Assembly: GCF_004010195.1 (NCBI RefSeq)
Contig: NC_057756.1
Coordinates: forward strand, 8,786,921-8,850,920
DNA length: 64,000 nucleotides
From: Chiloscyllium plagiosum
Taxonomy: Eukaryota
Direction of reading: 5' to 3'
Within the stretch, counting starts at the first letter, position 1. Every line of letters begins with the position of its first letter. The notes beneath the pieces are model-generated. The model saw nothing but the letters and a program-made list of their open reading frames with translations, had not been told where the DNA came from and searched no databases. Below, piece by piece: positions 378 to 27,450 of this stretch. A program made the position numbers and the translations under genes.

Positions 378-467
378 ATGTTTCTCAGCAGCTTCTCGGT
401 CTCCTGTCAGTGTCTGACCCTGATCCTGATCGCAGTCCCGGTCCCGGTCCCGGGAAAGGAGCTGCAG
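378..467 (+). CDS. Candidate exon 1 of B7/butyrophilin-like IgV receptor (MFLSSFSVSCQCLTLILIAVPVPVPGKELQ)
   Basis: ATG at 378, hydrophobic stretch, donor CAG|gtactt at 467/468 (phase 0). This matches the phase-0 reading of the 1506 exon. Confidence 0.5.
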
Positions 468-640
468 GTACTTACTGTCAGTGTCTCCCACCCGGGGACA
501 CCGAGGGAGGGAGGGAGGGGGATCTGGGGGAAACTTTCCGAGCAGTGAATCACCTCTTTATTAAAAGGAAACGCTGACAATCTCAGACACAGACCGAAAG
601 GGCTGGGACTTCTCAGAAGTTTATAAAGTGATGTGTGAGT

Positions 641-1235
641 GAATGGTGGCTCAGTGGTGAGCACTGCTGACTCTCAGCACCAGAGACCTGGCTTTGATTC
701 CAGCCTCAGGCGATTGTCTGTGGAGTTTACACCTTCTCCCCGTGTCTGCGTGGGTTTCTCCCACAGTGCCCAGGGATGCGCAGTATAGGGTGGCTTGGCC
801 ATGCTAAATTGTCCCATAGTGTCCAGGGATGTGCAGGTTAGAATGGCTTGGGCCATGCTAAATTGCCCCATAGTTTCCAGGGATGTGCAGGTTAGAATGG
901 CTTGGGCCATGCTAAATTGTGCCATAGTGTCCAGGGATGTGCAAGTTAGGGTGGCTTGGGCCATGCTAAATTGTCCCATAGTGTCCAGGGATGTGCAGGT
1001 TAGGGTGGCTTGGGCCATGCTAAATTGTCCCCAAGTGTCCAGGGATGTGCAGATTAGGGTGGATTGGCCATGCTAAATTGTCCCATAGTGCCCAGGGATG
1101 TGCAGGTTAGGTGCATTAGTCGGAGGGAAATGTAGAATAATAGGCTAAGGGAATGGGTATGGGTGGCTTACTCTTCGGAGGGATGGTATGATTTGTTTGG
1201 CCAAATGGTCTATTTCCACACTGTAGGAATTCTTT
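641..1235 (+). mobile_element. HE1-type tRNA-derived SINE with internal tandem amplification
   Basis: A-box TGGCTCAGTGG (647-657), B-box-like GGCTTTGATTCC, HE1 body GGCCATGCTAAATTG, and CR1-like tail ...TTTCCACACTGTAGG. Confidence 0.85.
760..1110 (+). repeat. 54-bp tandem repeat (~6.5 copies) derived from the SINE body
   Basis: Unit CCCATAGTGTCCAGGGATGTGCAGGTTAGGGTGGCTTGGGCCATGCTAAATTGT recurs at ~760, 813, 867, 921, 975, 1029 and 1082. Confidence 0.95.
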
Positions 1236-1505
1236 AAAAAAAATTTGAAAAAAAGTTGGGGGGTGGTCAATTGGAATCTTGAAAAGGGGGTTAGACGCAG
1301 ACCCGACGGATCTAAAATGGGTGAAGAATATTTTCTAAAGAAACATAATCTGGCAAAATACCATCAGAATTTTTCATTAAACTCTCAGTCTCAAATTGAG
1401 GTGGATCACTCTGGAGCCCAGCCTCTGTCAGTTATCACCCGGGGGCAGGGCGGGATCAGGAAGGGAATCTGTTGGAAAGGGACCGACTGTGTTTTCTTGT
1501 TGCAG

Positions 1506-1570
1506 GGACACAGCTCCCAGAAACTACTCCCCCCCGCTGCTGCTGCTAAATGTTGTTGCTGCTGTTTCAG
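1506..1570 (+). CDS. Candidate exon 2 (signal-peptide exon) of the IgV receptor
   Basis: Acceptor gttttcttgttgcag| and donor TTTCAG|gtcagt. One frame reads PLLLLNVVAAVS(G) and ends in phase 1, matching the IgV1 exon. A C7 run lies inside the exon (see findings). Confidence 0.6.
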
Positions 1571-1714
1571 GTCAGTGCTGTGAGTGCTGGAACATTTCAG
1601 CAGGGATCAAAGGCTGGGGGTGGGGGGAATCAGGAATTCCTCTTGCTTTAAGGTGCTGTGTGGGCTGCCAGTGGACCCACTGAGGGAGTGGGACACAATA
1701 GGTTCACAATTAAA

Positions 1715-2012
1715 CACCATTAATATAACTTCTAGAAAAAAAAGCTCTGGGATTTACATATGAAAAAACTGAAACCAACATGGTCATTCTAAAAGATGAG
1801 ACACTTAACAAACAATCCAGGTCTTTTTCAATGTATAACGTCAGCTGCATCACACTGTAAACGTTTGCTACAAATTCTGTGTCTTATGATCTAATGTTCC
1901 ACAACCACCTGATGAAGGAGCAGCGCTCCAAAAGCTAGTATAACTTTTTTGACTATAACCTGGCGTTGTCTGATTTTTAACTTTGTACACCGCAGTCCAA
2001 CACCAGCACCAC
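1715..2012 (+). mobile_element. Penelope-like 3' fragment (pLTR) with degenerate hammerhead core
   Basis: CTGATGA-AGGAGCAGCGCTCC-AAAAGCTAG at 1909-1938 (GAAA mutated). The fragment interrupts one copy of a local duplication. Confidence 0.55.
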
Positions 2013-2141
2013 TTAATCATGATTAGACACCATGATTGTGTGGGAGAGAGCTGTAAGGGAGGCACTTAATGTCTTCAGATTAACCCCTGGGATGTGAACA
2101 GTGGCATCTGAACCCTGAGCAACATTCAGTGACACTGATAA

Positions 2142-2430
2142 GATTACTTACAGTGTGGAAGCAAGCCCTTCGGCCCAGCAAGTCCTCATCGACCCTCACC
2201 CAGACCCATTCCCCTACATTTACCCCTTTACCTAACGCTACTGACAATTTAGCATGGCCAATTCACTAACCTGCACATTTTTGGACTGTGGAAGGAAACT
2301 GGAGCATCCGGAGGAAACCCACTGGGAGAATGTGCAAACTCCACACAGACAGTGGCCTGAGGTGGGAAATGAACCCGGGTCTCTGGCGCTGTGAGGCAGC
2401 AGTGCTAACCACTGTGCCACCGTGCTGCCC
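2142..2430 (-). mobile_element. HE1-type SINE
   Basis: Reverse complement begins GGGCAGCACGGTGGCACAGTGGTTAGCAC and contains the body motif GGCCATGCTAAATTG. Confidence 0.9.
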
Positions 2431-3299
2431 GACGGGATGGGGGACTATAATTCATGGGTCTGGGATGGGTCCTCAGCACTGGGATCAGTTCTGGAATTGA
2501 ATAGAACTGGGAATTGTCCAAGAGTAGAGGGATTGGGGTATCAAGATTGGGATGTAGAGTGTGTTTGATCATGTAATGGTTGTTCAGACTTGCTGGTTAC
2601 AATCAAGCTCACTCACTAACAATAGAAGCTTAACTTTCTGAGCCACACTAATGAATGATCAATCGACACAGGTTTCACATTCTGAATCATAAGAGTAAGT
2701 TTAATTTGTACAGAGAATCTCAGTATTGCACAGCCCATGCTAAACATTCTTATCTGATAAATAATGAGATATTCCTCCTCCTTTTCCCCCCCCCCCCCCC
2801 CCCCCCCGCCGGCCCAAAAGTGGACCCACCTAGGGATTGGACACAGTAGGTTCACGTTCACCACATGATTATGAGAGAGAGCTGAAAGGAAGGCACTTGA
2901 TGTCTTTAGATTAACCCCTAGGATGGGAATATTGGCATCTGGACACTGAGCAACACTCTACTGGGACTGGAAACTGGGATCCAGTGGAAGTTTGGTGGGT
3001 TCCTGAGTATTGGGGTCAGGTTTCTTGCCAAAGCTGAAATCAAGTAGAACTGGGAATTGTCACTGTGTAAGGGGAGTGAGGTTATCAGGACTCATTATTG
3101 GGCTTTGGATCCTGGGATAAGGCTGGACCAAGCTGTACTGGATCGGGGGCGCAAGATCTGTCGGGTTAGTGGCGGAGGGAGTTGAGGATCCACATTGCCC
3201 GGGCCCCTTTCACACCATCAGCTGCTGCCTCATCCCTATGCTGTTCTTGCCTGTCACTGTCCCCCTCGACCTGTACGAAAGCCATTTCCACATTCTCAG

Positions 3300-3340
3300 G
3301 AACCCCTTTCACACACATCGCTCTCCTTTTTTACACTCAG
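3300..3340 (+). CDS. Candidate 41-nt frame-restoring exon (RNPFHTHRSPFLHSG)
   Basis: Acceptor cattctcag| and donor TCAG|gtcagt, phase 2 to phase 1. It joins exon 2 (as assembled) in frame to IgV1. Confidence 0.3.
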
Positions 3341-4339
3341 GTCAGTGTTCTCTGTCCCAACCCCAAGTCAGTGATTTTTCTTGAAAAATTGTATCTGGTT
3401 CGGAGGGTGTGTGCTATGAGAAAAAATTGATCAGACTGGAATTACATACCAATAAGTGAAGGCCATTTGATCGTGCCTGACCTGAATTTAACTTCAACTC
3501 TATCTTCCTGGACATCCTGAAAAACTTTCATCCTCTTGGTCATCAAGAATCTATCTGTCTCTGCCTTAAAGACTCTTAAATGTCATTCCAGATTTTAATA
3601 TTGGATGCAAATTTCATCATCCGCCATAGTTGGATTTGAACCCAAACCCCAGAATGTTAACCTGTGTTTGTGGATTGCTGATTCAATGACATTACTCCAA
3701 TGCCACCATCTCCATGTCAGACCCTTGGTCCTAGCTTTACCCACAAGAGTGCGAAGTAAGATGGTGGTGGAGTAGACCTGATGTCCACTCTGTCTCCTTT
3801 CTTTCTCCTCCCTTCTCCTGGCCTTGGACACCTGGCCCAGGCATCCGAAGCAGGGATGCCAGTGACCAGTGGGCCAGTGTAGTGCGTGGCAGTAGCCAGT
3901 GGAGACCACGTGGAGGTCCCATTCTGTTGTGGAGAGCCTTTGGACAGAGACTATTCTGTTTGTCCTTTTAACTTTGCATCTTGTTTTTCTGACCTGTGGC
4001 CACACTGTCTACAGATGTAATGTAAATTTTTTTCTTAATTTTTCTATTCTGTAAGTAAAGATTGTACCTAGTACTCTGTTCCTAAGATGCCATTGTATAT
4101 TCCTTGTATTTTCCACTCAAATCACTTTCTGACCTATCTTTGCATCATCAGCTAACTTAGGTTCCAAACTTTGGATCCTTTCATCCAAACCATTTATAGA
4201 AATTACAAAGAGTTGAGGCCCCAACACTGAATCCTGTGGCACAGTCCTCATAACATCCTGCCAACCTGTGAAATGACCCATTTATTCCTACTTTTTGCTT
4301 CCTGTTCATAAGCCAATTTTCAATCCATGTTACCCCCTG

Positions 4340-4755
4340 CAACACCAGCTTTTAGTTTCCATGGTGTTCCTTGGAGCAGTGAATGTTGAGAAGGGACTTG
4401 ATGGGGGTGGATAAGATTGAGGGACATACATCATGTGGTCAGGAAGATACTTTCTCCATGAATAGAGCAGTCAATCGGTAGAGGCTGCGCACTTAAGGTA
4501 TGAGGTAGAAGGCGAAGAGGAGAGTGAGAGAATTCATTTCACACAGAGGCTGGTGAGAGTCTGGAACCTTATGACTGAGAGTGTGATTGAGTCAGAAACT
4601 CCTCTTATATTTAAGCTGTGTTCAGATATTCAATTGTGTTGCCATAGTGTCCTGGACTATAGGCAAAGAGCTGGAACTGGAGTAGTTATCGTCAGATCAT
4701 TGTTAAGTATTGTAAACACGATGGGCCAAATGGCCTCCTGTGCTGTAAGTGTCTG
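4340..4755 (+). mobile_element. Old CR1 LINE 3' fragment
   Basis: Degenerate ORF2 C-terminal motifs (TTCACACAGAGGCTGGTGAGAGTCTGGAAC) and a CR1 3'UTR (GGGCCAAATGGCCTCCTGTGCTG). Confidence 0.7.
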
Positions 4756-4789
4756 AGTCCAGTATCCAGCTGTTTTTTTCCCAGTGTGT

Positions 4790-6622
4790 GCCCAAATGGG
4801 AAACATAGCTATGGAGAAGGAGACAGGCAAGAAGGGGTAAGATAAAGGAACCTTGGATGACGAGAGCAGAGGAGCTTCTCGTCAAAAGAAAGAAGGCAGC
4901 TTACATAAGGTGGAGGAAGCTAGGGTCTTGCTCAGCTCTAGAGGATTACAGGCAGGCGAGGAAGGAGCTCAAAAATGGTCTGAGGAGAGCCAGCAGGGGG
5001 CACGAAAAAGGCTTGGCAGGAAGGATTAGGGAGAATCCAAAGGCATTTTACACGTATGTGAGGAATAAGAGAATGATCAAAGAAAGAGTAGGGCCAATCA
5101 GGGATAGCATAGAGAACTTGTTGTATAGAGACTGAGGAAGTAGGGGAAGCCCTAAATGAGTTTTTTTTTCTTCTGTCTTTACTAAAGAAAAGGACCTTGT
5201 AGTGAATGAAACCATTGAAGAGCAGGTGTGCATGCAGGAATGCAGAGATTGAGGAAGCCGATGTGCTGAAAATTTTGACAAACATTAAAATTGACAAGTC
5301 GTCAGGGCCAGACCAGATTTGTCCTCGGCTGCTTTGGGAAGCGAGAAATGTAATTGCTTCACCGCTTGCAAGGATCTTTGCATCCTCGCTCTCCACTGGA
5401 GCCGTACCTGAGGACTGGAGAGAGGCAAATGTAATTCCTCTCTTCAAGAAAGGAAATAGGGAAATCCCTGGCAATTACAGACCAGTCAGTCTCACGTCTG
5501 TCGTCTGCAAGGTGTTAGAAAGGATTCTGAGGGATAGGATTTATGACCATCTGGAAGAGCTTGATTAAATGCAGTCAGCACAGCTTTGTGAGGGGCAGGT
5601 CATGTCTCACAAATCTTATTGGGTTCTTTGAGGATGTTACTAGACAGGTTGATGAGGGTCGAGCGGTGGATGTGGTGTATGTGGACTTCAGCAAGGCATT
5701 TGATAAGGTTCCCCATGGTAGGTTCATTCAGAAGGTCAGGAGGAATGGGATTCAGGGGAACATAGCTGTCTGGATACAGAATTGGCTGGTCGACAGAAGN
5801 NNNNNNNNNNNNNNNNNNNNNNNNNNNNNNNNNNNNNNNNNNNNNNNNNNNNNNNNNNNNNNNNNNNNNNNNNNNNNNNNNNNNNNNNNNNNNNNNNNNN
5901 NNNNNNNNNNNNNNNNNNNNNNNNNNNNNNNNNNNNNNNNNNNNNNNNNNNNNNNNNNNNNNNNNNNNNNNNNNNNNNNNNNNNNNNNNNNNNNNNNNNN
6001 NNNNNNNNNNNNNNNNNNNNNNNNNNNNNNNNNNNNNNNNNNNNNNNNNNNNNNNNNNNNNNNNNNNNNNNNNNNNNNNNNNNNNNNNNNNNNNNNNNNN
6101 NNNNNNNNNNNNNNNNNNNNNNNNNNNNNNNNNNNNNNNNNNNNNNNNNNNNNNNNNNNNNNNNNNNNNNNNNNNNNNNNNNNNNNNNNNNNNNNNNNNN
6201 NNNNNNNNNNNNNNNNNNNNNNNNNNNNNNNNNNNNNNNNNNNNNNNNNNNNNNNNNNNNNNNNNNNNNNNNNNNNNNNNNNNNNNNNNNNNNNNNNNNN
6301 NNNNNNNNNNNNNNNNNNNNNNNNNNNNNNNNNNNNNNNNNNNNNNNAGGGGTCATAGTTTTAAGCTGTTTGGCGGGAAGTATAGAGGGGATGTCAGAGG
6401 CGGGTTCTTTACGCAGAGAGTTGTGGGAGCATGGAATGCGTTGCCAGCAGCAGTTGTGGAAGCGAGGTGATTGGGGATATTTAAGAGACTGCTGGACATG
6501 CATATGGTCACAGAAATTTGAGGGTTCGTACACTAGGTTTACCTTACATGAGGATCAATGGTCGGCAGAACAACATGGACTGAAGGGCCTGTTCTGTGCT
6601 GTACTGTTCTATGTTCTATGTA
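4790..6622 (+). mobile_element. CR1/HER1 LINE, 5'-truncated, frameshifted ORF2 (RT), spans an N-gap
   Basis: Motifs ENPKAFYTYV, KSSGPDQICPRLL, VPEDWREANV.PLFKKG, NYRPVSLTSV, SCLTNL and DFSKAFDKVPH. Ends in (TTCTATG)n. Confidence 0.95.
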
Positions 6623-6850
6623 ACGCAGTACTGTTCAGCTGCTTAGTGCTGACAAATATCCAGCACAAGTTCCTTTTAGTTGAAGACCCTCAGTATCTGA
6701 GCTTCAACCTTCCCATAGAAATGAAAGCAGTGAGTTACTAATCAGAGCTTCTTGTAAATCCAGCATTGCAGTGTAACCATGTGAAGCTTGGGATGTAATG
6801 TACCAGCAGGGAGGTTCTATCTGTGGATAAATACTTTCAATGTTTTCCAG

Positions 6851-7195
6851 GTGACTCACCTGTCCCAGTTTCTGGGTTCCTTGGGGAGCAGGTTGTGCTG
6901 CCCTGTACCTACAAAGGGAATGTCCCAGTATCTGATTTACTGGTTATCTGGGGAACACCCAAATATGAATTTTTACACAAGTTTGTGAATGGGAGTGATG
7001 ATTTGAGAGAACAAGACCCACGGTTCAGAAACAGAACAAACCTGTTCAAAGATCAACTGGAACAAGGCAACTGGTCAGTTCTGATCTCTGACCTCAGGGA
7101 GACAGACCAGGATGAGTATCAATGTCAGATTTACAGCAAGATGGGAGATCGCTTTCGATGGCTGGAAGTTGTTTCAGTCCATCTCTCTGTCACAG
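6851..7195 (+). CDS. IgV exon 1 of B7/butyrophilin-like receptor
   Basis: 345 nt, phase 1-1, ttttccag| ... ACAG|gtgagt. Contains the V-set motifs VLPC, W and DQDEYQC, plus the B7/BTN-type signature QDPRFRNRTNLF..QL..GNWS..I. Confidence 0.93.
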
Positions 7196-7335
7196 GTGAG
7201 TGTTTTTGTTTGGTTATTTTGCTCTGCGTTTGATTTCCTGAGATAATAGTATAGTGGTCATGTTGGGAAACTAGACTTTGAACATTTCTGCAGTTTGTTT
7301 CACACACCGTACTAAACACATGATGTTTCCTTTAG

Positions 7336-7374
7336 AGCGAGCTCCTACACCTGGACCGAACACACCTGTACCAG
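7336..7374 (+). CDS. 39-nt Pro/Thr-rich linker exon (ERAPTPGPNTPVP)
   Basis: tttcctttag| ... CCAG|gtaaat, phase 1-1, open in the frame of both V exons. Confidence 0.8.
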
Positions 7375-8051
7375 GTAAATCTGTTTCTAAACTACTGCAT
7401 GTGTTTTCAGCTCTTACATTGGATCATGCTGGATAGACAGGGAGGAACGTTGGAAGGTTTGAAATGCTGTGTGATATTTTACCAAAGAATGATTCAGTGA
7501 GAGTTAGTGGTATGAGCCACTGTTCCCTGGAAGTGGTCCTTAATCTTCCTGGGATTGTTATTTCTGTTTCCGAGACACCCCTTCCTGTCCCTCAGATACA
7601 GAATACTAGGGATTCCTACTTCCTACTATCATTAGTCTTTCTGGAATTCTGTGTGGAGACTCTCGGTACAATGTGAATGGAACCCTCCTCTTGGGAAACT
7701 GATGGGATTGGGAATGATGCTGGTTGAAGTCAGTGAAGCCATATTGACTGGTCTTCCACCCAGTCCCTGGGAGAAAGGGAATTTTCTCATCTTGTTGAGA
7801 TTTACTTGCTTCCATGCGTCTCTGTGCAGTTTTCAGTTTAAAGGAAGATTAGAGTCTACACACTGTGGAGGGAATCTTTGTTAGAAATAATGTGATCTTG
7901 AGCCTTAATCTTCCCATAGAAATGAAAGCAGTGAGTTACTGATCAGAGCTTCTTCTAAATCCAGCATCGTAGTGTAACCATGTGAAGCTTGGGATGTAAT
8001 GTGCCAGCAGGCAGGTTCTCTCTGTGGATAAATCCTTTCAATCTTTTCCAG

Positions 8052-8396
8052 GTGACTCACCTGTCCCAGTTTCTGGGTTCCTTGGGGAGCAGGTTGTGCT
8101 GCCCTGTACCTACGAAGGGAATGTCCCAGTCTCTGATTTATGGGTAATCTGGAGGACACTCAAGATGGAAATTGTACACGGGTTTGTCGAGGGGATCGAT
8201 GATTTGAGAGAACAAGACCCACATTTCAGAAACAGAACAAACCTGTTCAAAGATCAACTGGAACAAGGCAACTGGTCAGTTCTGATCTCCGACCTCAGGG
8301 AGACTGACCAGGATGAATACCAGTGTCAGATTTACAGCAAGATGGAGGAGCACTTTCATCGTGATGGAGTTGTTTCAGTCCATCTCTCTGTGAGAG
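8052..8396 (+). CDS. IgV exon 2 (tandem duplicate of IgV exon 1)
   Basis: 345 nt, phase 1-1, cttttccag| ... AGAG|gtgaga. 96/115 residues are identical to V1. Confidence 0.93.
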
Positions 8397-9065
8397 GTGA
8401 GATATTTCTGTTTCAGGTATTCTGTTAAGTCTCTGATTTTACAGAGACAATAATCCAGTGGTGAGTTATGTTGACATGTGACTCCAGTCCCACATTAACC
8501 TGGGGAAGGTTTAATTGCCCTCTTTAATTGTCTGAGCACATCAATCAGTTTGTACCAAACCCCGAGACAGGAAAATCCACAATAAAACTGAATGGGTCAC
8601 TGGCTGTGAGCCAGGCATCGAATCAGGACACAGCAATGACACAGCCAGCCCAGCTGCCCCTGTAAAGTCCCCGTCACTAACATCTGGGGACTGGGGTCCA
8701 ACTTGGGAGACTGTGGGACATAGTCACACTGACAGAAATAACACAACATCCCAGACTCCCCTATCACCATCCCTGGGTATGTCCTGTCCCACTGGAAGGA
8801 CAGGCCCACCAGAGGCGAGGGCACAGAGAGATACAGTCTGGAGGGGGTGACCCTCGATGAAGGCAGTGTGGTATAATATTGACCCAGTTGTAAAGCACAT
8901 TGAAATTCATCTCAAGCACTTTCCTCTCAATGCTGTAGGCTTCTCCACAGGAAAATAACTGTAAAATAAAACAATTTCATCAGTGGTTTAATTGAAGGGT
9001 AACTGATGCTGGTCAGTGTACAGTTCTCAATATTGGAAAGCATGTATCAATCCCATCGTGGGGCA

Positions 9066-9092
9066 GTGTGTGTGTGTGCGCGTGCGTGCGTG
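9066..9092 (+). repeat. (GT)n/(GCGT)n microsatellite
   Basis: Direct inspection. The homologous position in the inverted paralog carries (CA)n at ~26622-26651. Confidence 0.9.
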
Positions 9093-9277
9093 CAAAGCGC
9101 TGTGAGGTGGTCCAGTGTGTGATTATTGGGATCTAACCTCCCATATCCCTCCAGGACTAGAATTACCCAGGGATCTGTTTGTCCTGGGGCTGGTTCTGAA
9201 ACACTAGGTGCTGAAGGTCTTTGCTGTTAGTTTTGTTTGTGTGTCCCAGTCTGTTAATGGCTTCATTCTGTTTCTAG

Positions 9278-9392
9278 GTCTTGGACTCGCCACTGGAGCA
9301 AGAGTTAGATTGGGAATCGGGATTGTTGCTGGGATTGTTGGTGTTCTTGTTGCTGGAATTGTGTTTTATATCATCCAAAAGCAACAAACCAG
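9278..9392 (+). CDS. Transmembrane exon (GLGLATGARVRLGIGIVAGIVGVLVAGIVFYIIQKQQT)
   Basis: tgtttctag| ... CCAG|gtgagt, phase 1 to 2. Encodes a ~22-aa uncharged hydrophobic helix with a GxxxG motif, followed by polar/basic residues. Confidence 0.88.
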
Positions 9393-9639
9393 GTGAGTTG
9401 TGGAATGTTCACTATTCCCATGGTAACCCTTTGATCTTTGTATAACATTGTGTGAAATGTTGCTGAGCTCTGTCCCTGTCCATTCCCTGAGCTGTGAGGA
9501 TGCTTCAATCCAGCCTGTCATTGAGCAGCAGCATCCAGTCACTTCCAGCTTGTCATCCTCTCGCTGCTGAACAGTCCCGTGGATTGGAAAGGAGCAAATA
9601 TTATCCAACTGGAGAGCCAGAGGATGGGGCATATATTGG

Positions 9640-9960
9640 GAATTTCAGGAGGTATTTGGGAAGGTGCCACACAATAGGTTGTTGTACAAGATGAGGGCCC
9701 AGGGGATTGGGGGGTAATATAGCATGGATTGTGGATTGGTTAATGGACAGGAACAGAGCAGGAACAAATGGGTCATTGTCAGTTGTCAGGATGTAACTGG
9801 TGCTGCGAGGATCAGTGCTGGGACCTCAGTGACTCACCATCTATATCAGTGACTGAGATGGGGGGATAGAGTGGGATTGTCCCAGTTTGCTGCTGATACA
9901 AAGCTCAGTGGGAAAGTAAGCTGTGAGGAGGATACAGAGGCTGCAAACAGGGATAAACTG
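9640..9960 (+). mobile_element. Old CR1 RT fragment inside the TM-cytoplasmic intron
   Basis: Degenerate equivalents of KVPH.RL, GSVLGP and FADDTKL. Confidence 0.7.
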
Positions 9961-10790
9961 GTTCACGTTTATACTCCATGAGGGTGTGGATGCTCCATTG
10001 TTTAATCTGTTTCAGACTGAGATGGATAGATTTGAACATTCCCATCCTTTTTCCAATCCCTCCATTGCCTCAGCCCTCCCTATCTGTAACCACCTTCAGC
10101 TGTACAGTCCCTGTTCTCTTAGATCTCTGTGCTCCTGTCTCCCTGATATTTCCATTACTGCCCCATTCGTGGCTGTGCCTTCAGCTGCCTGACTTTGGAG
10201 CTCTGTAATTCCTCACCTAAACATCTTTTGTCTGAGTTTCTCTCCCTCCGTCTCCCTCTGTCTCTCCAATGCTTCTTTCTTTCTTGTCTTTTCCTGTACT
10301 GCACAATGTGCAAGGTGTTATGGAAATGCAAGTTGTTGTTCACTCTCTTGCACTTTTTGAACCACACAGCCCATCCCTTCTCCAGGGTATTGGAGGGTTC
10401 AGTCACTGGGAAGAACATCTTGGATTTCCTTGTTTCCCTCAATATCCGTATCTCTGTGCTCCCCGCCTTTCCCCATGTACAGCCCTCACAGTGGGAGGAG
10501 GAACTACTGCAGGTTTCTCTCACTCTCTCCTCTGGCCCTCCCTCTGTCAGTCAGCATAGCTCCTGTGGAGTGCCCAGCTTTTGCCCATTGCCTCCTCTTT
10601 TAGCCTCCTCTCCTCTACCATCTGTGCTCCATCACCGTGCAGCTCCTGTCGCCCATTTTCCAGCTGCCATTGGTCCCCAGGATGTTGAGGGTCATTTAAT
10701 GGGTCTGTGCTCCTGAACAGCTCCTTTTACACACGTGTCCAAAGTGTTGGACTCTTCTAATGTGTACTCTGCTGGTTTCTCTCTCCATAG

Positions 10791-10932
10791 GAAACAAAAT
10801 CCACACAAGATGGCAGCATCGAATGGTGTCCCTTTGAGAGAGGTGACCTGTTCAGGTGAAGCAGAGAGCTTGTGCCACACGTACCTGAGCATCAGGATGG
10901 AGCTGCCGGGGAACGGGACTGTCAAGCACTGA
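10791..10932 (+). CDS. Terminal cytoplasmic exon (RKQNPHKMAASNGVPLREVTCSGEAESLCHTYLSIRMELPGNGTVKH*)
   Basis: Strong acceptor tttctctctccatag|, phase 2 matching the TM donor. Homologous to the paralog exon at 22612-22714. Confidence 0.75.
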
Positions 10933-11450: not shown

Positions 11451-11674
11451 CTCTTTTTTGTTTTGGTGTCATGACTCGTTTCAGCTTTGACAGATTGTGA
11501 ACAGCGGTGTAAGAGTTAAATGTCCCCCAGGCCGATCTTTGCTCAGACTGATCCTTTTGGCTGGACTGGAAAATAAACAGTGAGGGGTCACATCAGACTC
11601 CACTTGAATGAGAGGAAAACCAAACGTTCTTAAAATACTCACGTCTGGCTGGCTGAATTCCTCTACACTCAATA

Positions 11675-22000: not shown

Positions 22001-22611
22001 GAGGGTGTGAAATGATGGAAAGCTGCTGACATTAGACAGGCTGAATTTTTTCAAAGGTGATATCTAATTCTTTTCAATCTGCACTTAAGCTTGACATCGC
22101 TAGAGCTGGTGAATTGATTCAGTACAGAGTGTGGACTGGGCTGAGCAGGACAGAGCAGGCATGGCTAACAGTTTTCAAACTTCAGGTTTCTGAATGCAGG
22201 CTAGAGTTCACAACTCCCATCAACTATCAATCATCGAAGGATTGGCCCAACTCGACAAACAATCCATGGGGTTGAAGATAATGACCCCATCCTGTGGAGA
22301 TGGCCAGGTGGTGAGTGCAGGGAGCAGGATTAAACATTGCTGGAATCATCGGAATCAAGGAATCAGATCTCACCAGCCATTTTTAACGGCCCCCAGAGTG
22401 GGTCTGAGTTTGTGAAAACCGAGGCCTAAATTTACGGGATTGTGGTTGGTGGCCAGGACTTGGACATCGGGATGTCATTGCTGATCTCAGCCTCTCCATG
22501 GATAATCACTGAGCAGCTAATGGAAAGAGCTGATTGTTCCCTCAGTGACTCGGTCACAGGGTTAAAGTAACTCATGGGGGTTTCATCGACAGCTCCAGCC
22601 CCCAGAGGGGC

Positions 22612-22714
22612 TCATTCTCCAGCCGCTCCATCCTGATGATTGGGTGATGTTGGACAAAATGCTTCCCTTTCACTTGGATGAGACACATCTCTCAAAGGGA
22701 TTTGTTTAGATGGT
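22612..22714 (-). pseudogene. Terminal (cytoplasmic-homologous) exon of the inverted paralog
   Basis: Acceptor ttgatttttcttctag|. The frame reads PSKQIPLRDVSHPSEREAFCPTSPNHQDGAAGE*, homologous to 10791-10932. Joined to the TM exon it starts with TG|A, a stop. Confidence 0.65.
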
Positions 22715-22965
22715 CTAGAAGAAAAATCAACAAGAATTCATGTTGCATTTGAACACGTGTGTAAAGGAGCTGTTCAGGAGCACAGACACATTAAATGACC
22801 GTCGACGTCCTGGGGACCAATGGGTGACAGGAGCTGCACGGTGATGGAGCACAGGGTGTAGAGGAGAGGACGCTTATAGGGGAGGCAATGGGCAAGAGCT
22901 GGGCACTCCACAGGAGCTGTGCTGACTGACAGAGGGAGGGCCAGAGGAGAGAGTGAAGAGCCCTG

Positions 22966-24875
22966 CAATTAGGGACCGTGGGAGGTTGCTGAGTAAGGTA
23001 AGGGCCCATGGTTTTCAAGGTGAGCTACTGGCATGGATTGAGGATCGGCTGTCTGACAGAAGGCAGAGAGTTGGGATAAAAGGTTCTCTTTCAGAATGGC
23101 AGCTCATGACAAGTGGTGTCTCGCAGGGTTCAGTACTGGAGCCGCAGCTGTTCACTTTAGAAATTACTGATCTGGATGAACTGGGGCATTCTGGCGAAGT
23201 TCGCCAATGATATGAAGTTAGGTGGACAGGCAGGTAGTTCTGAGGAGGTGGGAGGCTGCAGACAGATTTAGACAGTTTAAGAGAATGGTCCAAGAAATGG
23301 CTGATTCGATTTGATTCGATTCAATTCCTTACAGTATGGAAACAGGCCCTTCTGCCCAATAAGTCCACACCGACCCTCCAAACAGTAACCCACCTAGACC
23401 CATTCCCCTACTCTATATTTACTCCTCACTAATGCACCTAACACTATTGGCAATTGAGCATGGCCAATTCACCTGGCCTGCACATCTTTAGATTGTGGAA
23501 GGAAACCTACGCAGACACGTGGGAGAATGTGCAAACTTCACACAGACAGTCGCCCAAGGCAGGAATCAAACCCCCAAGGCAGGTCCCTGGTGCTGTAAGG
23601 CAGCAGTGCTAACCACTGAGCCACCGAACTGCCCTTAAGTTAAGGGCAGTTCAGAGGCTAGGAATCCCGCAACAACTAACTCACCTCCTGACACCCCAAA
23701 GTCAGCCACCACAAGGCACAAATCAGGATTGCGATGGAAAAGTCCCCACTTGTCTAGATGGGTGCAGTTCCAAAAAGACAAGAAACTTCACACCATCCAC
23801 GACAAAATAACCTATTTGATTGGCACTACATCCACAAATATTTACTCTCTCTGCAGACGCTCAGTAGCAGCAGTGTGAACCATCTTTAATAAGCCCATAA
23901 TACATAGGAGCAGAAGTAGACCGTTCAGCCCATTGAGTCTGCTCCACCATTCAATGACAGCATGGCTGGTCTGAGAATCCTCAGCTCCACCTTACTGCCT
24001 TTTCCTTATAACCCTCAATTCCCTGACTGATTAAGATTCTGCCCATCTCAGCCAAGAATCTACTGAAATTCAACGTGAGCAAATGCAAGGTCTAGCACTT
24101 TGGAAAAAAAAAATGCAGGCATGGACTATTTTCTAAACGGTGAGAAAATTCATCAAGCCAAAGTACAAAGGGATCTGGGAGTGCTAGTCAAGGATTCTCT
24201 AAAGGTTGACTTGCAGGTTGAGTCCGTGGTTAAGAAAGCAAATGTAATGTTGTCATTTATCTCAAGAGGGTTATAATGTAAAAGCAGCGATGTGCTACTG
24301 AGACTTTATAAAGCTCTGGTTAGGCCCCATTTAGAATACTGTGTCCAGTTTTGGGCTCCACACCTCAGGAAGGAAATATTGGCACTGGAGCGTGTCCAGC
24401 AGAGATTCACACGGATGATTCCTGGAATGGTAGGCCTAACATACGATGAACGGCTGAGGATCATGGGATTGTATTCATTAGAGTTTAGAAGGTTGAGGGG
24501 AGATCTAATAGAAACTTACAAGATAATGCATGGCTTAGAAAGGGTGGATGCTGGAAATTTGTTTCTGTCAGGCTGGAATACTAGGACCCGTGGGCACAGC
24601 CTTAGAATTAGAGGGAGTCAATTTAAAACAGAAATGTGGAGACATTTCTTCAGCCAGAGAGTGGTGGCCTGTGGAATTCATTGCACAGTGGAGGCTGGGA
24701 TGTTAAGTGTCTTCAAGGCAGAGATTGATAATTTTTTAATCTCACAAGGAATTAAGGGACACAGGGAGAGTGCGGGTAAGTGGCGTCGAAATGCTCATCA
24801 GCCGTGACTGAATGGCGGAGTGGACTCGATGGGCCGAATGGCCTTACCTCCACTCCTATTTCTGATGGTCTTAAT
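22966..24875 (+). mobile_element. CR1 LINE RT/3' region inserted in the paralog intron, itself interrupted by a SINE and other repeats
   Basis: ORF 22953-23210 has SGVSQGSVLEPQLF. ORF 24292-24807 has LYKALVRPHLEYCVQFW. The flanks rejoin seamlessly against the + gene intron at ~10505. Confidence 0.9.
23324..23634 (-). mobile_element. HE1-type SINE nested in CR1
   Basis: Reverse GGTGGCTCAGTGGTTAGCACTGCTG head and CR1-like tail. Confidence 0.85.
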
Positions 24876-25140
24876 AGTTCCTCCTCCCACAGTGAAGGGT
24901 GCATGTGGGGAAAGGTGGGGAGCACAGGGATGTGGATATTGAGGAAAACAAGGAAATCCGAGAGGGTATTCCCAGTGACTGATGCATCTGATGCCCAGGA
25001 TAAAGGGGAGGTTTGCAAATCCTGGAGGCAACAGAGCAACAACAACTTGCATTTATTTAGCAGCTGTAACACAGAATATAGGAGAGGTTAAACACAATCT
25101 GACCCTGAGTGACACACAGGAATTTAGGCAATGAGGTATA

Positions 25141-25675
25141 CAGGCAGCCCCCGCTTTTCGAATGTTCGCTTTATGCCAATTCGCTTTTACCAAAGACCTA
25201 CATTAGGACCTGTTTTCGCTAACTGAAAGAGGATTTGCGCTTTTACAAAAAAGCACACACAACCTCCTTCCCCGAACGTGTTAATAGATGACCCTCTTCC
25301 TCTATCTCCTACACTCCAGTCTCCCACCTACCCCAACCTCGGACGACTCAGTCTAACATATCATCATCATCACCTCCACCTCTCAGCCTTCCAGTGTGCT
25401 CACTGCGTTTCCTAATTCTGGTGAATGAAACTAATGTACATACATCATTTCCTCTTTATGTAGGCTGTATATTTATTGTATCAGTGCTGCTTTTTCTATA
25501 CATTGGTGTTGTTTTAGGTTTTGTGTGTTATTTGGTATGATTTGGTTGGGTATTTTTTGGGTGTGGAAACTGAAAAGGATTTCCCATATAAATTACTGCT
25601 TCTTTGCTTGACGCCATTTCAGCTTACGAAAGGTTTCATAGGAACACTCTGCTTTCAGACAGCGAGGGATACCTG
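25141..25675. mobile_element. Tigger/pogo-like non-autonomous DNA transposon (MITE)
   Basis: Imperfect TIRs CAGGCAGCCCCCGCTTTTCGAA / CAGGTATCCCTCGCTGTCTGAA (reverse complement), flanked by TA on both sides. Confidence 0.7.
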
Positions 25676-26326
25676 TACCTTAAGATCCAGCTTCAATGAG
25701 CACAGGGTGGGTGGGGCTGAGGGTCCATTGACCCCAGTGTTCAGCAACTTTGTGACATTCCCATAAACCCAAACACCATCCAGTCTTTGCAAAAGGGACC
25801 AAGACCGTCTCGTTCCTCTGACCCACTTGCAATAAAGCCTACCATCCCATTTACCTCCCTCATATCCGACCTGTAATTTGGAGATTTATCTACAAATTCC
25901 TCTGAATGACATTCACTGGCCTTTCTCCTTGTAAAAATATTCTTTTCTATTCACGCTTCACTTTTTTTTAAAAAACAGAAACGACTGCAGTTATTATCCA
26001 AATATTTATCCAGCATTTCCCTGTTTGCAGCCTCTGTATCCCCTTCACAGCTTACTTTCCCACTGAGCTTTATATCAGCAGCAAACTGGGACAATCCCAC
26101 TCTATCCACCCATCTCAGTCACTGATATAGATTGTGAGTCACTGAGGTCCCAGCACTGATCCTCGCAGCACCAGTTACATCCTGACAACTGACAATGACC
26201 CATTTGTTCCTGCTCTGTTCCTGTCCATTAACCAATCCACAATCCATGCTATATTACCCCCCAATCCCCTGGGCCCTCATCTTTCAAAGGGTTACCATGG
26301 AAATAGTGGAACATTCCAGAACTCAC

Positions 26327-26435
26327 CATCTTTGTCGCTTTAGGACAAAAAAACCTGCAATTTCAACAACAACAGCAATCCCAGCAGCAATCCCGACTCC
26401 CAATCCAACTCCTGTTCCAGTGAAGAGTCCAGAAC
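26327..26435 (-). pseudogene. TM exon of the inverted paralog (GSGLFTGTGVGLGVGIAAGIAVVVEIAGFFVLKRQR)
   Basis: Intact acceptor ctgtctccag| and donor TG|gtgagt, 109 nt, phase 1 to 2. Flanking introns align to 8985-9960. No upstream V exon was found in the window. Confidence 0.8.
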
Positions 26436-26619
26436 CTGGAGACAGAGTGAAGCCATTAACAGACTGGGACACACAAACTAAACTAACAGCAGAGACCTTC
26501 AGCACCTCGTGTTTCAGAACCAGCCCCAGGACAAACAGATCCCTGGTTAATTCTAGTCGTGGAGGGATGTGGGAGGTTAGATCCCAATAATGTCATACAC
26601 CAGACCACCCCACAGCTCC

Positions 26620-26654
<35 letters not shown>

Positions 26655-27049
26655 CCCACAATGTGATAGATACATGCTTTCCAATAGCGAGAACTGGACA
26701 CTGACCAGCAGCAGTTTCCCTTCAGTTAAACACAACAGCAAGAGTGTGTAACTTACCAATTTGGAAAACCATGCAATTGGTGGAATATTGGTTGACACTG
26801 ACTTCAACCAGCATCACTCCCAATCCCATCAGTTTCCCAACAGGAGAGTCCAGTTCACATTGTACCGAGACTCTCCACACAGAATTCCAGAAACACTGAT
26901 TCAAGTGGGAAGCAGGAATCCTCAGAGTTCTGTATCTGAGGGACAGGAAGGGGATTCTGAGAAACTGAAATAACAATTCCAGGGAGTTTAAGGACCAGTT
27001 CTAGGAAATGGTGACCCACATCACTCACTCTCACAGGGTCATTCTTTGC

Positions 27050-27450
27050 TGAAGTAACTGGACTATAGCTGTAGGTAAACAGATATAAACCAATAGCATT
27101 TAGCACAATCACAATTATAAAATCCTCCTTTACCCACACGGACAAAGCAAATGGGGAAAATAGCTTACTAGCGGAAGTGGAGAAAATTGGAAAGTCAGTC
27201 TAAGTATCATTCCTTCCTGATCCTGATTTGAGATCATCTTTCTTTGGCTGGCCAAGCCATCAGTGTTTAATTTCCAGAGAAAAAGAGTCTCTGGATCAAT
27301 TTAAAAAGTCACCACTCACAGCAACAGCTGCAGGAAAGTAAGTGGAAAGGTAAGTTTTATGTAAATACACGTTTAAACTGAATGTTTACTGCAGAGAACA
27401 GACAGCTTCTGCAGAGAACAGCAGCACAATCTTCTGTCTCCTTTGTTCCG
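27050..27450 (-). mobile_element. LTR-like repeat fragment, same family as 29880-30800 but in opposite orientation
   Basis: CACTCACAGCAACAGCTGCAGGAAAGT and TGCAGAGAAC...CTTCTGCAG align to the reverse complement of 29920-30020. Confidence 0.55.

Follow-up and report, generated by a model that had tools for sequence, protein, structure and literature searches.

B7-H4 (VTCN1; PDB 4gos) is a single-copy protein with one immunoglobulin variable (V) and one constant (C) domain, MOG (PDB 1py9) is a single gene of the mammalian major histocompatibility complex (MHC) with one V domain, and the GFCC' face of the V domain is the receptor-binding surface of B7 members. In the relevant passages of PMC11599192, canonical B7 ligands have the V-C layout, and B7 genes are located in MHC paralogons. 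Passages of PMC8813856 describe butyrophilins as V-C (or V-C-V-C) proteins with heptads and a B30.2 tail, and chicken BG as a B7-superfamily V domain with a transmembrane (TM) segment and a long heptad coiled-coil tail, without C or B30.2 domains, encoded in a tandem array that varies in copy number and adjoins the MHC. Here we analyze a 64,000-nucleotide stretch of the shark Chiloscyllium plagiosum (contig NC_057756.1, hereafter C47, positions 8,786,921-8,850,920; “the window”), which contains on its forward strand, at window positions 378-10,932, a gene with two B7-type V domains separated by a short hinge.

Our analysis indicates that the gene probably belongs to a tandem cluster of B7-type, V-only genes in sharks, which likely provides a varied set of ligands for the cell surface, that its second V domain arose by exon duplication, and that its product is likely a ligand and not a signalling receptor, because the tail carries no signalling motif. 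An initial annotation, made from the sequence of the window, had proposed a complete receptor. The word “receptor” is doubtful for the reason just given, and “complete” does not hold, since the leader is put out of frame by one extra C and one of the eight proposed exons is unsupported in paralogs and in 73 homologous proteins.

Core architecture and origin of the two V domains

The eight segments from 378-467 to 10,791-10,932 splice into a 1182-nt open reading frame (ORF) of 393 aa plus stop with GT-AG at every intron, so the joins of the initial annotation were reproduced. The core of the gene (V1, hinge, V2, TM segment and short tail, without an IgC or B30.2 domain) is real. The first V exon (6851-7195), which is B7-H4-like, and the second (8052-8396) are each 345 nt long and in phase 1/1, score 39.9 and 40.3 bits against the Pfam V-set model (cut-off 26), and encode domains with 83% amino-acid identity. 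Between them lies the 39-nt hinge exon (7336-7374, phase 1/1), whose 13 Pro/Thr-rich residues correspond to the stalk exon of single-V paralogs and which is matched by 54 of the 73 homologs. The TM exon (9278-9392) is rich in Gly, Ile and Val with no charged residue in its core, and the last coding exon (10,791-10,932) encodes a cytoplasmic tail of about 47 aa, in which no B30.2 domain was found and, by inspection, no immunoreceptor tyrosine-based inhibition or activation motif (ITIM/ITAM). A candidate polyadenylation signal, identified by its motif, follows at 11,572-11,577.

The introns, outside a 548-N assembly gap at 5800-6347, contain no IgC-like ORF of at least 70 aa. The gap lies within a LINE-like repeat of intron 2, which is matched on both sides, and near an RVT_1 fragment (5206-5565); a loose C-W-C pattern is matched once, by an ORF at 6349 that adjoins the gap, lies in repeat DNA and was not Pfam-scanned. 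Among two-V homologs, 13 of 13 have V-set domains and none has a C1-set, C2-set or SPRY domain. The absence of IgC and B30.2 stated by the initial annotation stands, as do its two V domains and 13-aa hinge.

Judged from the sequence, the V-V pair is the product of an internal duplication of a phase-1/1 exon. The duplicated unit, which comprises about 150 nt of intron, the V exon and about 60 nt of intron, is present at 6698-7258 and again at 7899-8462 (both on the forward strand), and the two copies are 87% identical over 565 nt, intron flanks included. Such a plain V-V layout is ordinary exon duplication. The window V1 is nearer to a single-V paralog (92% DNA identity) than to V2 (88%), and in a quick tree the window V2 has as its partner, with support 94, the V2 of a model from C. 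punctatum. In the same tree, V domains of two-V proteins mostly cluster by lineage (Heterodontus, Pristiophorus, S. torazame and one Cetorhinus model), and V-V therefore arose repeatedly or was homogenised within lineages. The differences between V domains fall in patches on near-identical frameworks, a pattern that would fit gene conversion. The ratio of nonsynonymous to synonymous divergence (dN/dS) is 0.43 between V1 and V2 and ranges from 0.32 to 0.77 in pairwise comparisons among seven V exons, and positive selection is thus unsupported by pairwise dN/dS in this set.

Shark relatives and place among B7-type families

The gene belongs to a tandem cluster of about 420 kb (C47:8.59-8.97 Mb) with 12 V exons on both strands, seven intact and five broken. 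A second leader-V-hinge-V-TM gene lies at 8.968-8.974 Mb, for which public models include a V1-skipping isoform (P0058, P0020), and four neighbouring genes are matched at 100% by five public Chiloscyllium plagiosum proteins. Homolog searches returned named matches from sharks exclusively; no ray or chimaera relative was named, a weak absence given that the searches require shared words. The 73 homologous proteins come from 12 shark species and comprise 43 one-V, 28 two-V and two three-V models, isoforms included. A lineage-restricted multigene family, as the initial annotation supposed, is thus borne out by the cluster and by the sharks-only names, and V-hinge-V is not atypical within it: two-V models, which probably include some mis-joined genes, occur in 10 of the 12 species. 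Charged TM residues are found in only three of 65 TM-bearing homologs (the other 62 are uncharged), an ITIM-like string in one of the 65 (a PRDM fusion model), and tails measure about 47-65 aa across the family, encoded in one or two exons.

Public shark models of this same family, with the same leader, hinge, TM segment and tail, carry automatic and mutually conflicting names (“CD276 antigen homolog”, “MOG-like” and “ICOS ligand-like”; XP_043539184, XP_072409802, XP_048476541). We found no description of the family in the literature searched, which consisted of listings and the openings of abstracts, with subscription journals and supplements outside its scope; passages of PMC10751288, PMC12227049, PMC12151841 and PMC11372145 do not mention it under the terms used.

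By sequence and by model, the V domain is more B7-H4-like than butyrophilin-like, and the second half of the “B7/butyrophilin-type” label in the initial annotation is wrong or overstated. Human B7-H4 IgV is its best sequence match (E 3.4e-16, 62.4 bits, versus 32.9 bits for BTN1A1), profile scores are 69 bits for B7-H4, 53 for PD-L1, 34 for MOG and 31 for CD80/86, and the predicted structure (predicted local distance difference test, pLDDT, 91) has a B7-H4-like fold with a template modelling (TM) score of 0.80 to 4gos. The gene thus agrees with an extended definition of B7 in which the IgV is most similar to those of B7 members, and, when its leader is in frame, with a type I membrane protein whose short tail lacks tyrosine motifs. 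It departs from the canonical V-C layout, as a C domain is lacking both in the window gene, outside the gap, and in all 13 two-V homologs; the butyrophilin layout is likewise not found in the window gene, nor is the single V, TM segment and long heptad tail of chicken BG.

Set beside individual systems, the gene resembles B7-H4 in having the closest V domain, a type I membrane layout and a short tail without signalling motifs, and differs in being V-hinge-V, without C, and multi-copy. MOG is similar as a V-only ectodomain of the B7/butyrophilin group (E 8.7e-10), and is by profile a weaker match than B7-H4 or PD-L1. Chicken BG, in the passages of PMC8813856, offers the likeness of a B7-superfamily V with a TM segment, no C or B30.2, and a tandem array varying in copy number; it differs in its one V, its long coiled-coil tail, its position beside the MHC and its selected variation, which lies in the tail, whereas the shark family has a short non-heptad tail, one to three V domains and variation on the V face. 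Teleost models named “butyrophilin-like 2” or “CD276 homolog” share adjacent V-V domains with no C between. This arrangement occurs in 124 of 147 unnamed or looked-up relatives, in a ranking that favours multi-domain proteins. Because tandem V-only models are frequent among these more distant relatives, with eight of ten looked up being teleost, the architecture is not unique. Against the shark profile no teleost model exceeds about 65 bits per domain, and none falls within the shark clade, for which reasons the two are likely parallel expansions.

The V-domain phylogeny proposed with the initial annotation, run here as a quick tree, recovers the shark family as its own clade with a Shimodaira-Hasegawa-like approximate likelihood ratio test (SH-aLRT) value of 99, apart from V domains on C37 whose butyrophilin identity is our own reading. 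Its deeper placement is weak: the family joins a V on C39 and four teleost V rows with an SH-aLRT of 81. The C39 V exon (16.50 Mb) is B7-type, with matches to CD276, CD80, CD86 and ICOSL, and both trees place it weakly as sister of the shark family. On C37, the interval 17.9-33.6 Mb has at least 15 more V exons of B7/BTN type, which are 24-36% identical.

Several further features of the cluster and window were recorded. An inverted paralog remnant occupies 22,585-27,056 of the window on the reverse strand, with a TM exon near 26,431-26,364 and a stop-containing tail near 22,700; no V exon of it was found within the window. The segment 9688-9961 is 97% identical to 26,010-26,283, above the level of the flanks, and may be a recent conversion tract. 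A tandem repeat of about 55 nt lies in a SINE-like element of intron 1 (756-1111). Just upstream of the window lies a divergently oriented paralog (C47:8,778,994-8,783,554, reverse strand), whose exon 2 contains an expanded C-run and whose V exon is frameshifted. Another cluster gene (C47:8,758,796-8,759,065, reverse strand) has the family leader, TM segment and tail, with the V replaced by a Cys-containing ectodomain of about 90 aa, of which a diverged copy lies near C47:9,082,983-9,083,204. This ectodomain has no Pfam match, except a faint V-set match in catshark relatives; structural atlas leads point to V-set/PVRIG-type folds with scores below 0.9, and it also occurs in models of several sharks (P0232, P0233, P0230, P0236), in P0021 beside a V. 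Within the V cluster, at C47:8.89-8.94 Mb, lie one or more SRCR exons and several C2-type Ig exons (C19orf38/Ig_2) with weak LILR, CEACAM and FCRL5 matches. Copies of the exon-2 region or V exon outside C47 occur at C37:5,867,336-5,867,634 and on C1635, C97528 and C67909 (C37 is large, the others small and unplaced), and a short fragment resembling a G-protein-coupled receptor (P2Y/HCAR-type matches; L074:9654-9962, reverse strand) lies about 45 kb beyond the cluster.

The 5' end, the tail and the read evidence

The coding part of exon 1 (378-467, phase 0) encodes the first half of the leader and starts as in models P0014, P0028, P0029, P0035 and P0052. Its join to exon 2 (1506-1570, 65 nt), a hydrophobic signal-peptide exon, is seen in an RNA-type contig (record 8 of run X6). 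In the family layout, a poly-leucine signal peptide forms the end of exon 2, which is spliced straight to a V exon. In five of eight other copies examined, exon 2 measures 64-73 nt (3n + 1) and ends in a hydrophobic leader; in the remaining three, the C-run is expanded in one, similarity is lost midway in another, and the last is too dissimilar for comparison. The window exon 2 carries one extra C in the run at 1529-1535, which shifts the hydrophobic leader of the family out of its reading frame, and splicing the exon directly to V1 in the assembled sequence leads to a stop at codon 53. The leader is in frame, as for a type I membrane protein, solely without the extra C.

The third exon of the initial annotation (3300-3340) restores the reading frame and is likely not an exon, as comparison with its relatives suggests. 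In 460 kb of the cluster it matches itself alone, and neither it nor the shifted peptide occurs in any of the 73 homologous proteins, 48 of which contain the family leader motif; the lone weak match over the segment is a chance alignment at 26% identity. Loose criteria yield four frame-fixing AG...GT segments in the intron that holds it. A transcript in the family frame without 3300-3340 would encode 379 aa. The last exon, relative to paralogs, has a 1-nt loss after 10,868 and a 17-nt loss after 10,902, which shift about 11 codons of the 393-aa model before the family stop is regained; the 17-nt loss, but not the 1-nt loss, is apparently common to the C. punctatum model P0017. The 393-aa model is mis-modelled at its 5' end, and the exact model should not be used.

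We compared four runs (X6, X9, X11 and X13) over 300-2300 of the window; among the runs listed with this sequence none is on record as RNA, and X6 is putative RNA. At 1529, one letter is absent in the one X13 read, the one X6 contig and the one X11 contig that cover the site, which X9 reads do not reach, and the seven-C form is absent from all aligned records of the four runs. We infer that the extra C is an assembly error or a null allele, because all three runs covering the site lack it. Record 8 of X6 matches 343-462 without difference and is joined to 1501-1572 with the C missing and two extra leucine codons. It ends two letters beyond exon 2, and these agree with the beginning of a V exon and not with that of 3300-3340. 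Among assembled copies, the stretch 343-462 is identical in the window gene alone, with the proviso that paralogous first exons may hide in gaps. The reads thus favour, thinly, an in-frame expressed allele.

Genomic setting, rival explanations and proposed function

The neighbours of the cluster on C47 resemble human 19q13.2-13.31. A nectin-like V exon (best match Nectin-1) lies at 8.53 Mb, about 60 kb from the cluster, IRG-type GTPases at 8.567 and 9.303 Mb, an SK-channel exon at 9.118 Mb, XRCC1 at 9.33 Mb and a spliced RPS19 at 9.65 Mb. The order in human 19q13.2-13.32 is RPS19, XRCC1, IRGQ, IRGC, KCNN4, CEACAM20/IGSF23, PVR and NECTIN2, for which we found no confirming paper; no B7 gene is known in this block, nor between KCNN4 and PVR/NECTIN2 in mammals. 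A simple 19q13 match is countered by CNOT3 on C39, spliced RPL28 on C42 and CLPTM1-type genes on C41 and C29, and by the SK, IRG and nectin identities, which are at the family level. Only two of seven marker-family searches reached C47 (XRCC1 and RPS19); ERCC1 gave no match in the genome search, and SMG9 was not located, the Smg8_Smg9 family matching C28 alone, which is uninformative. Linkage to the leukocyte receptor complex was rejected on the positions of CNOT3 and RPL28 off C47. The MHC genes of Chiloscyllium plagiosum are placed on its chromosome 37 in passages of PMC7677710.

A number of observations weigh against the explanation that we favour. Pairwise dN/dS is below 1, and the proportion of synonymous differences rises with that of nonsynonymous differences in the variable segments. 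Five of the 12 cluster V exons are broken, and no protein identical to the window gene was found in the homolog searches, although public proteins match four of its neighbours at 100%, which fits a pseudogene annotation. The read support is thin and may derive from paralogs: X13 contributes one read, the X11 contig has a depth of 56 against about 5 for single copy and likely represents collapsed paralogs, and the X6 contig has two leucine codons more than the assembly in a run whose RNA status is a guess. Co-transcription of V1, hinge, V2 and TM exons is read from their adjacency and from predicted gene models of relatives. The broken V exons and missing public protein, along with the exon 2 frameshift, the two last-exon indels and the expansion of the same C-run in the neighbouring broken paralog, would agree with a young pseudogene or common null allele in which the extra C is genuine, the leader is no longer encoded and translation stops at codon 53. 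This seems unlikely to us, as no damage is seen in the two V exons, the hinge exon or the TM exon, all of which have canonical sites, dN/dS between V1 and V2 is 0.43, the runs at the site lack the extra C, one contig links the window gene's own first exon to an in-frame exon 2, and the 17-nt tail loss is apparently shared with P0017. Far less probable still is a rescue of the frame by inclusion of 3300-3340 in the transcript, with a signal peptide formed by the hydrophobic stretch in exon 1, where hydropathy peaks at 2.8 over 11 residues. The segment does have an acceptable acceptor and donor with a pyrimidine fraction of 0.71; it also lacks any counterpart in paralogs or homologs, is one of four such segments that chance provides in the intron, would leave seven Cys in the first 66 residues, and is not entered by the X6 contig.

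That the gene is a 1:1 ortholog of CD276 or VTCN1 which diverged and lost its IgC, for which B7-H4 and CD276 as the best PDB matches would speak, is largely refuted and hardly to be credited. CD276 is a separate clear gene on C40, which scores 96 bits to single-domain CD276 versus 30-31 for the window gene, and this counts against CD276 orthology; the multi-copy state, the absent C domain and a separate B7-H4-like V on C12 count against VTCN1, in keeping with the initial annotation. The separate clade (SH-aLRT 99) and the different neighbours point the same way. It is possible, if doubtful, that the family has a role in adhesion or as decoys for pathogens, comparable to the nectin/PVR and CEACAM proteins of the matching human region, with a variable face that tracks microbes and not host receptors. 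The variable GFCC' face, the birth-and-death cluster, the tail without signalling motif and the nearby nectin-like gene would suit such a role; against it stand the B7 type of the V domain, the absence of nectins from the matches listed and a dN that does not exceed dS.

We prefer the ligand reading. Across 72 shark V rows, whose relatedness deprives the accompanying p-value of the force of a test, entropy is 1.62 bits on the C-C' and F-G segments versus 0.65 elsewhere, and 16 of the 19 differences between V1 and V2 fall on C-C' and F-G. In a model of a whale-shark V-V protein (predicted template modelling score 0.38), both V domains are folded independently and the linker has low confidence. 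The transcript would run from exon 1 through exon 2 in the family frame to V1, hinge, V2, TM and tail, without 3300-3340. Through its GFCC' face, the outer V would bind a partner on another cell, by analogy with other B7 members most likely a lymphocyte receptor of the immunoglobulin superfamily, and the ligand would signal by way of that partner. The Pro/Thr hinge, likely O-glycosylated and flexible, would lengthen the reach, and the second V, whose differences from V1 lie mostly on the GFCC' face, may contribute reach, avidity or a further specificity. Phase-1/1 exons would permit the number of V domains to change through duplication or exon skipping. A bolder proposal, which we advance only as speculation, is that this is an undescribed B7 branch kept in sharks alone, in the counterpart of human 19q13.31 (between KCNN4 and PVR/NECTIN2), and that the swapping of phase-1 exons (one to three V domains or the unclassified Ig-like domain) onto one leader, stalk, TM segment and tail builds a modular ligand repertoire whose variable face is read by a family of shark lymphocyte receptors.

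The novelty of the finding is lowered by tandem V-only B7/BTN-like models being common in teleosts. If the gene is expressed as we propose, sharks would own a multi-copy family of B7-type ligands without a mammalian counterpart, masked until now by conflicting automatic names and forming a shark parallel to the chicken BG and teleost tandem-V expansions. The locus offers a testable case for the spread of B7 genes over vertebrate paralogons.

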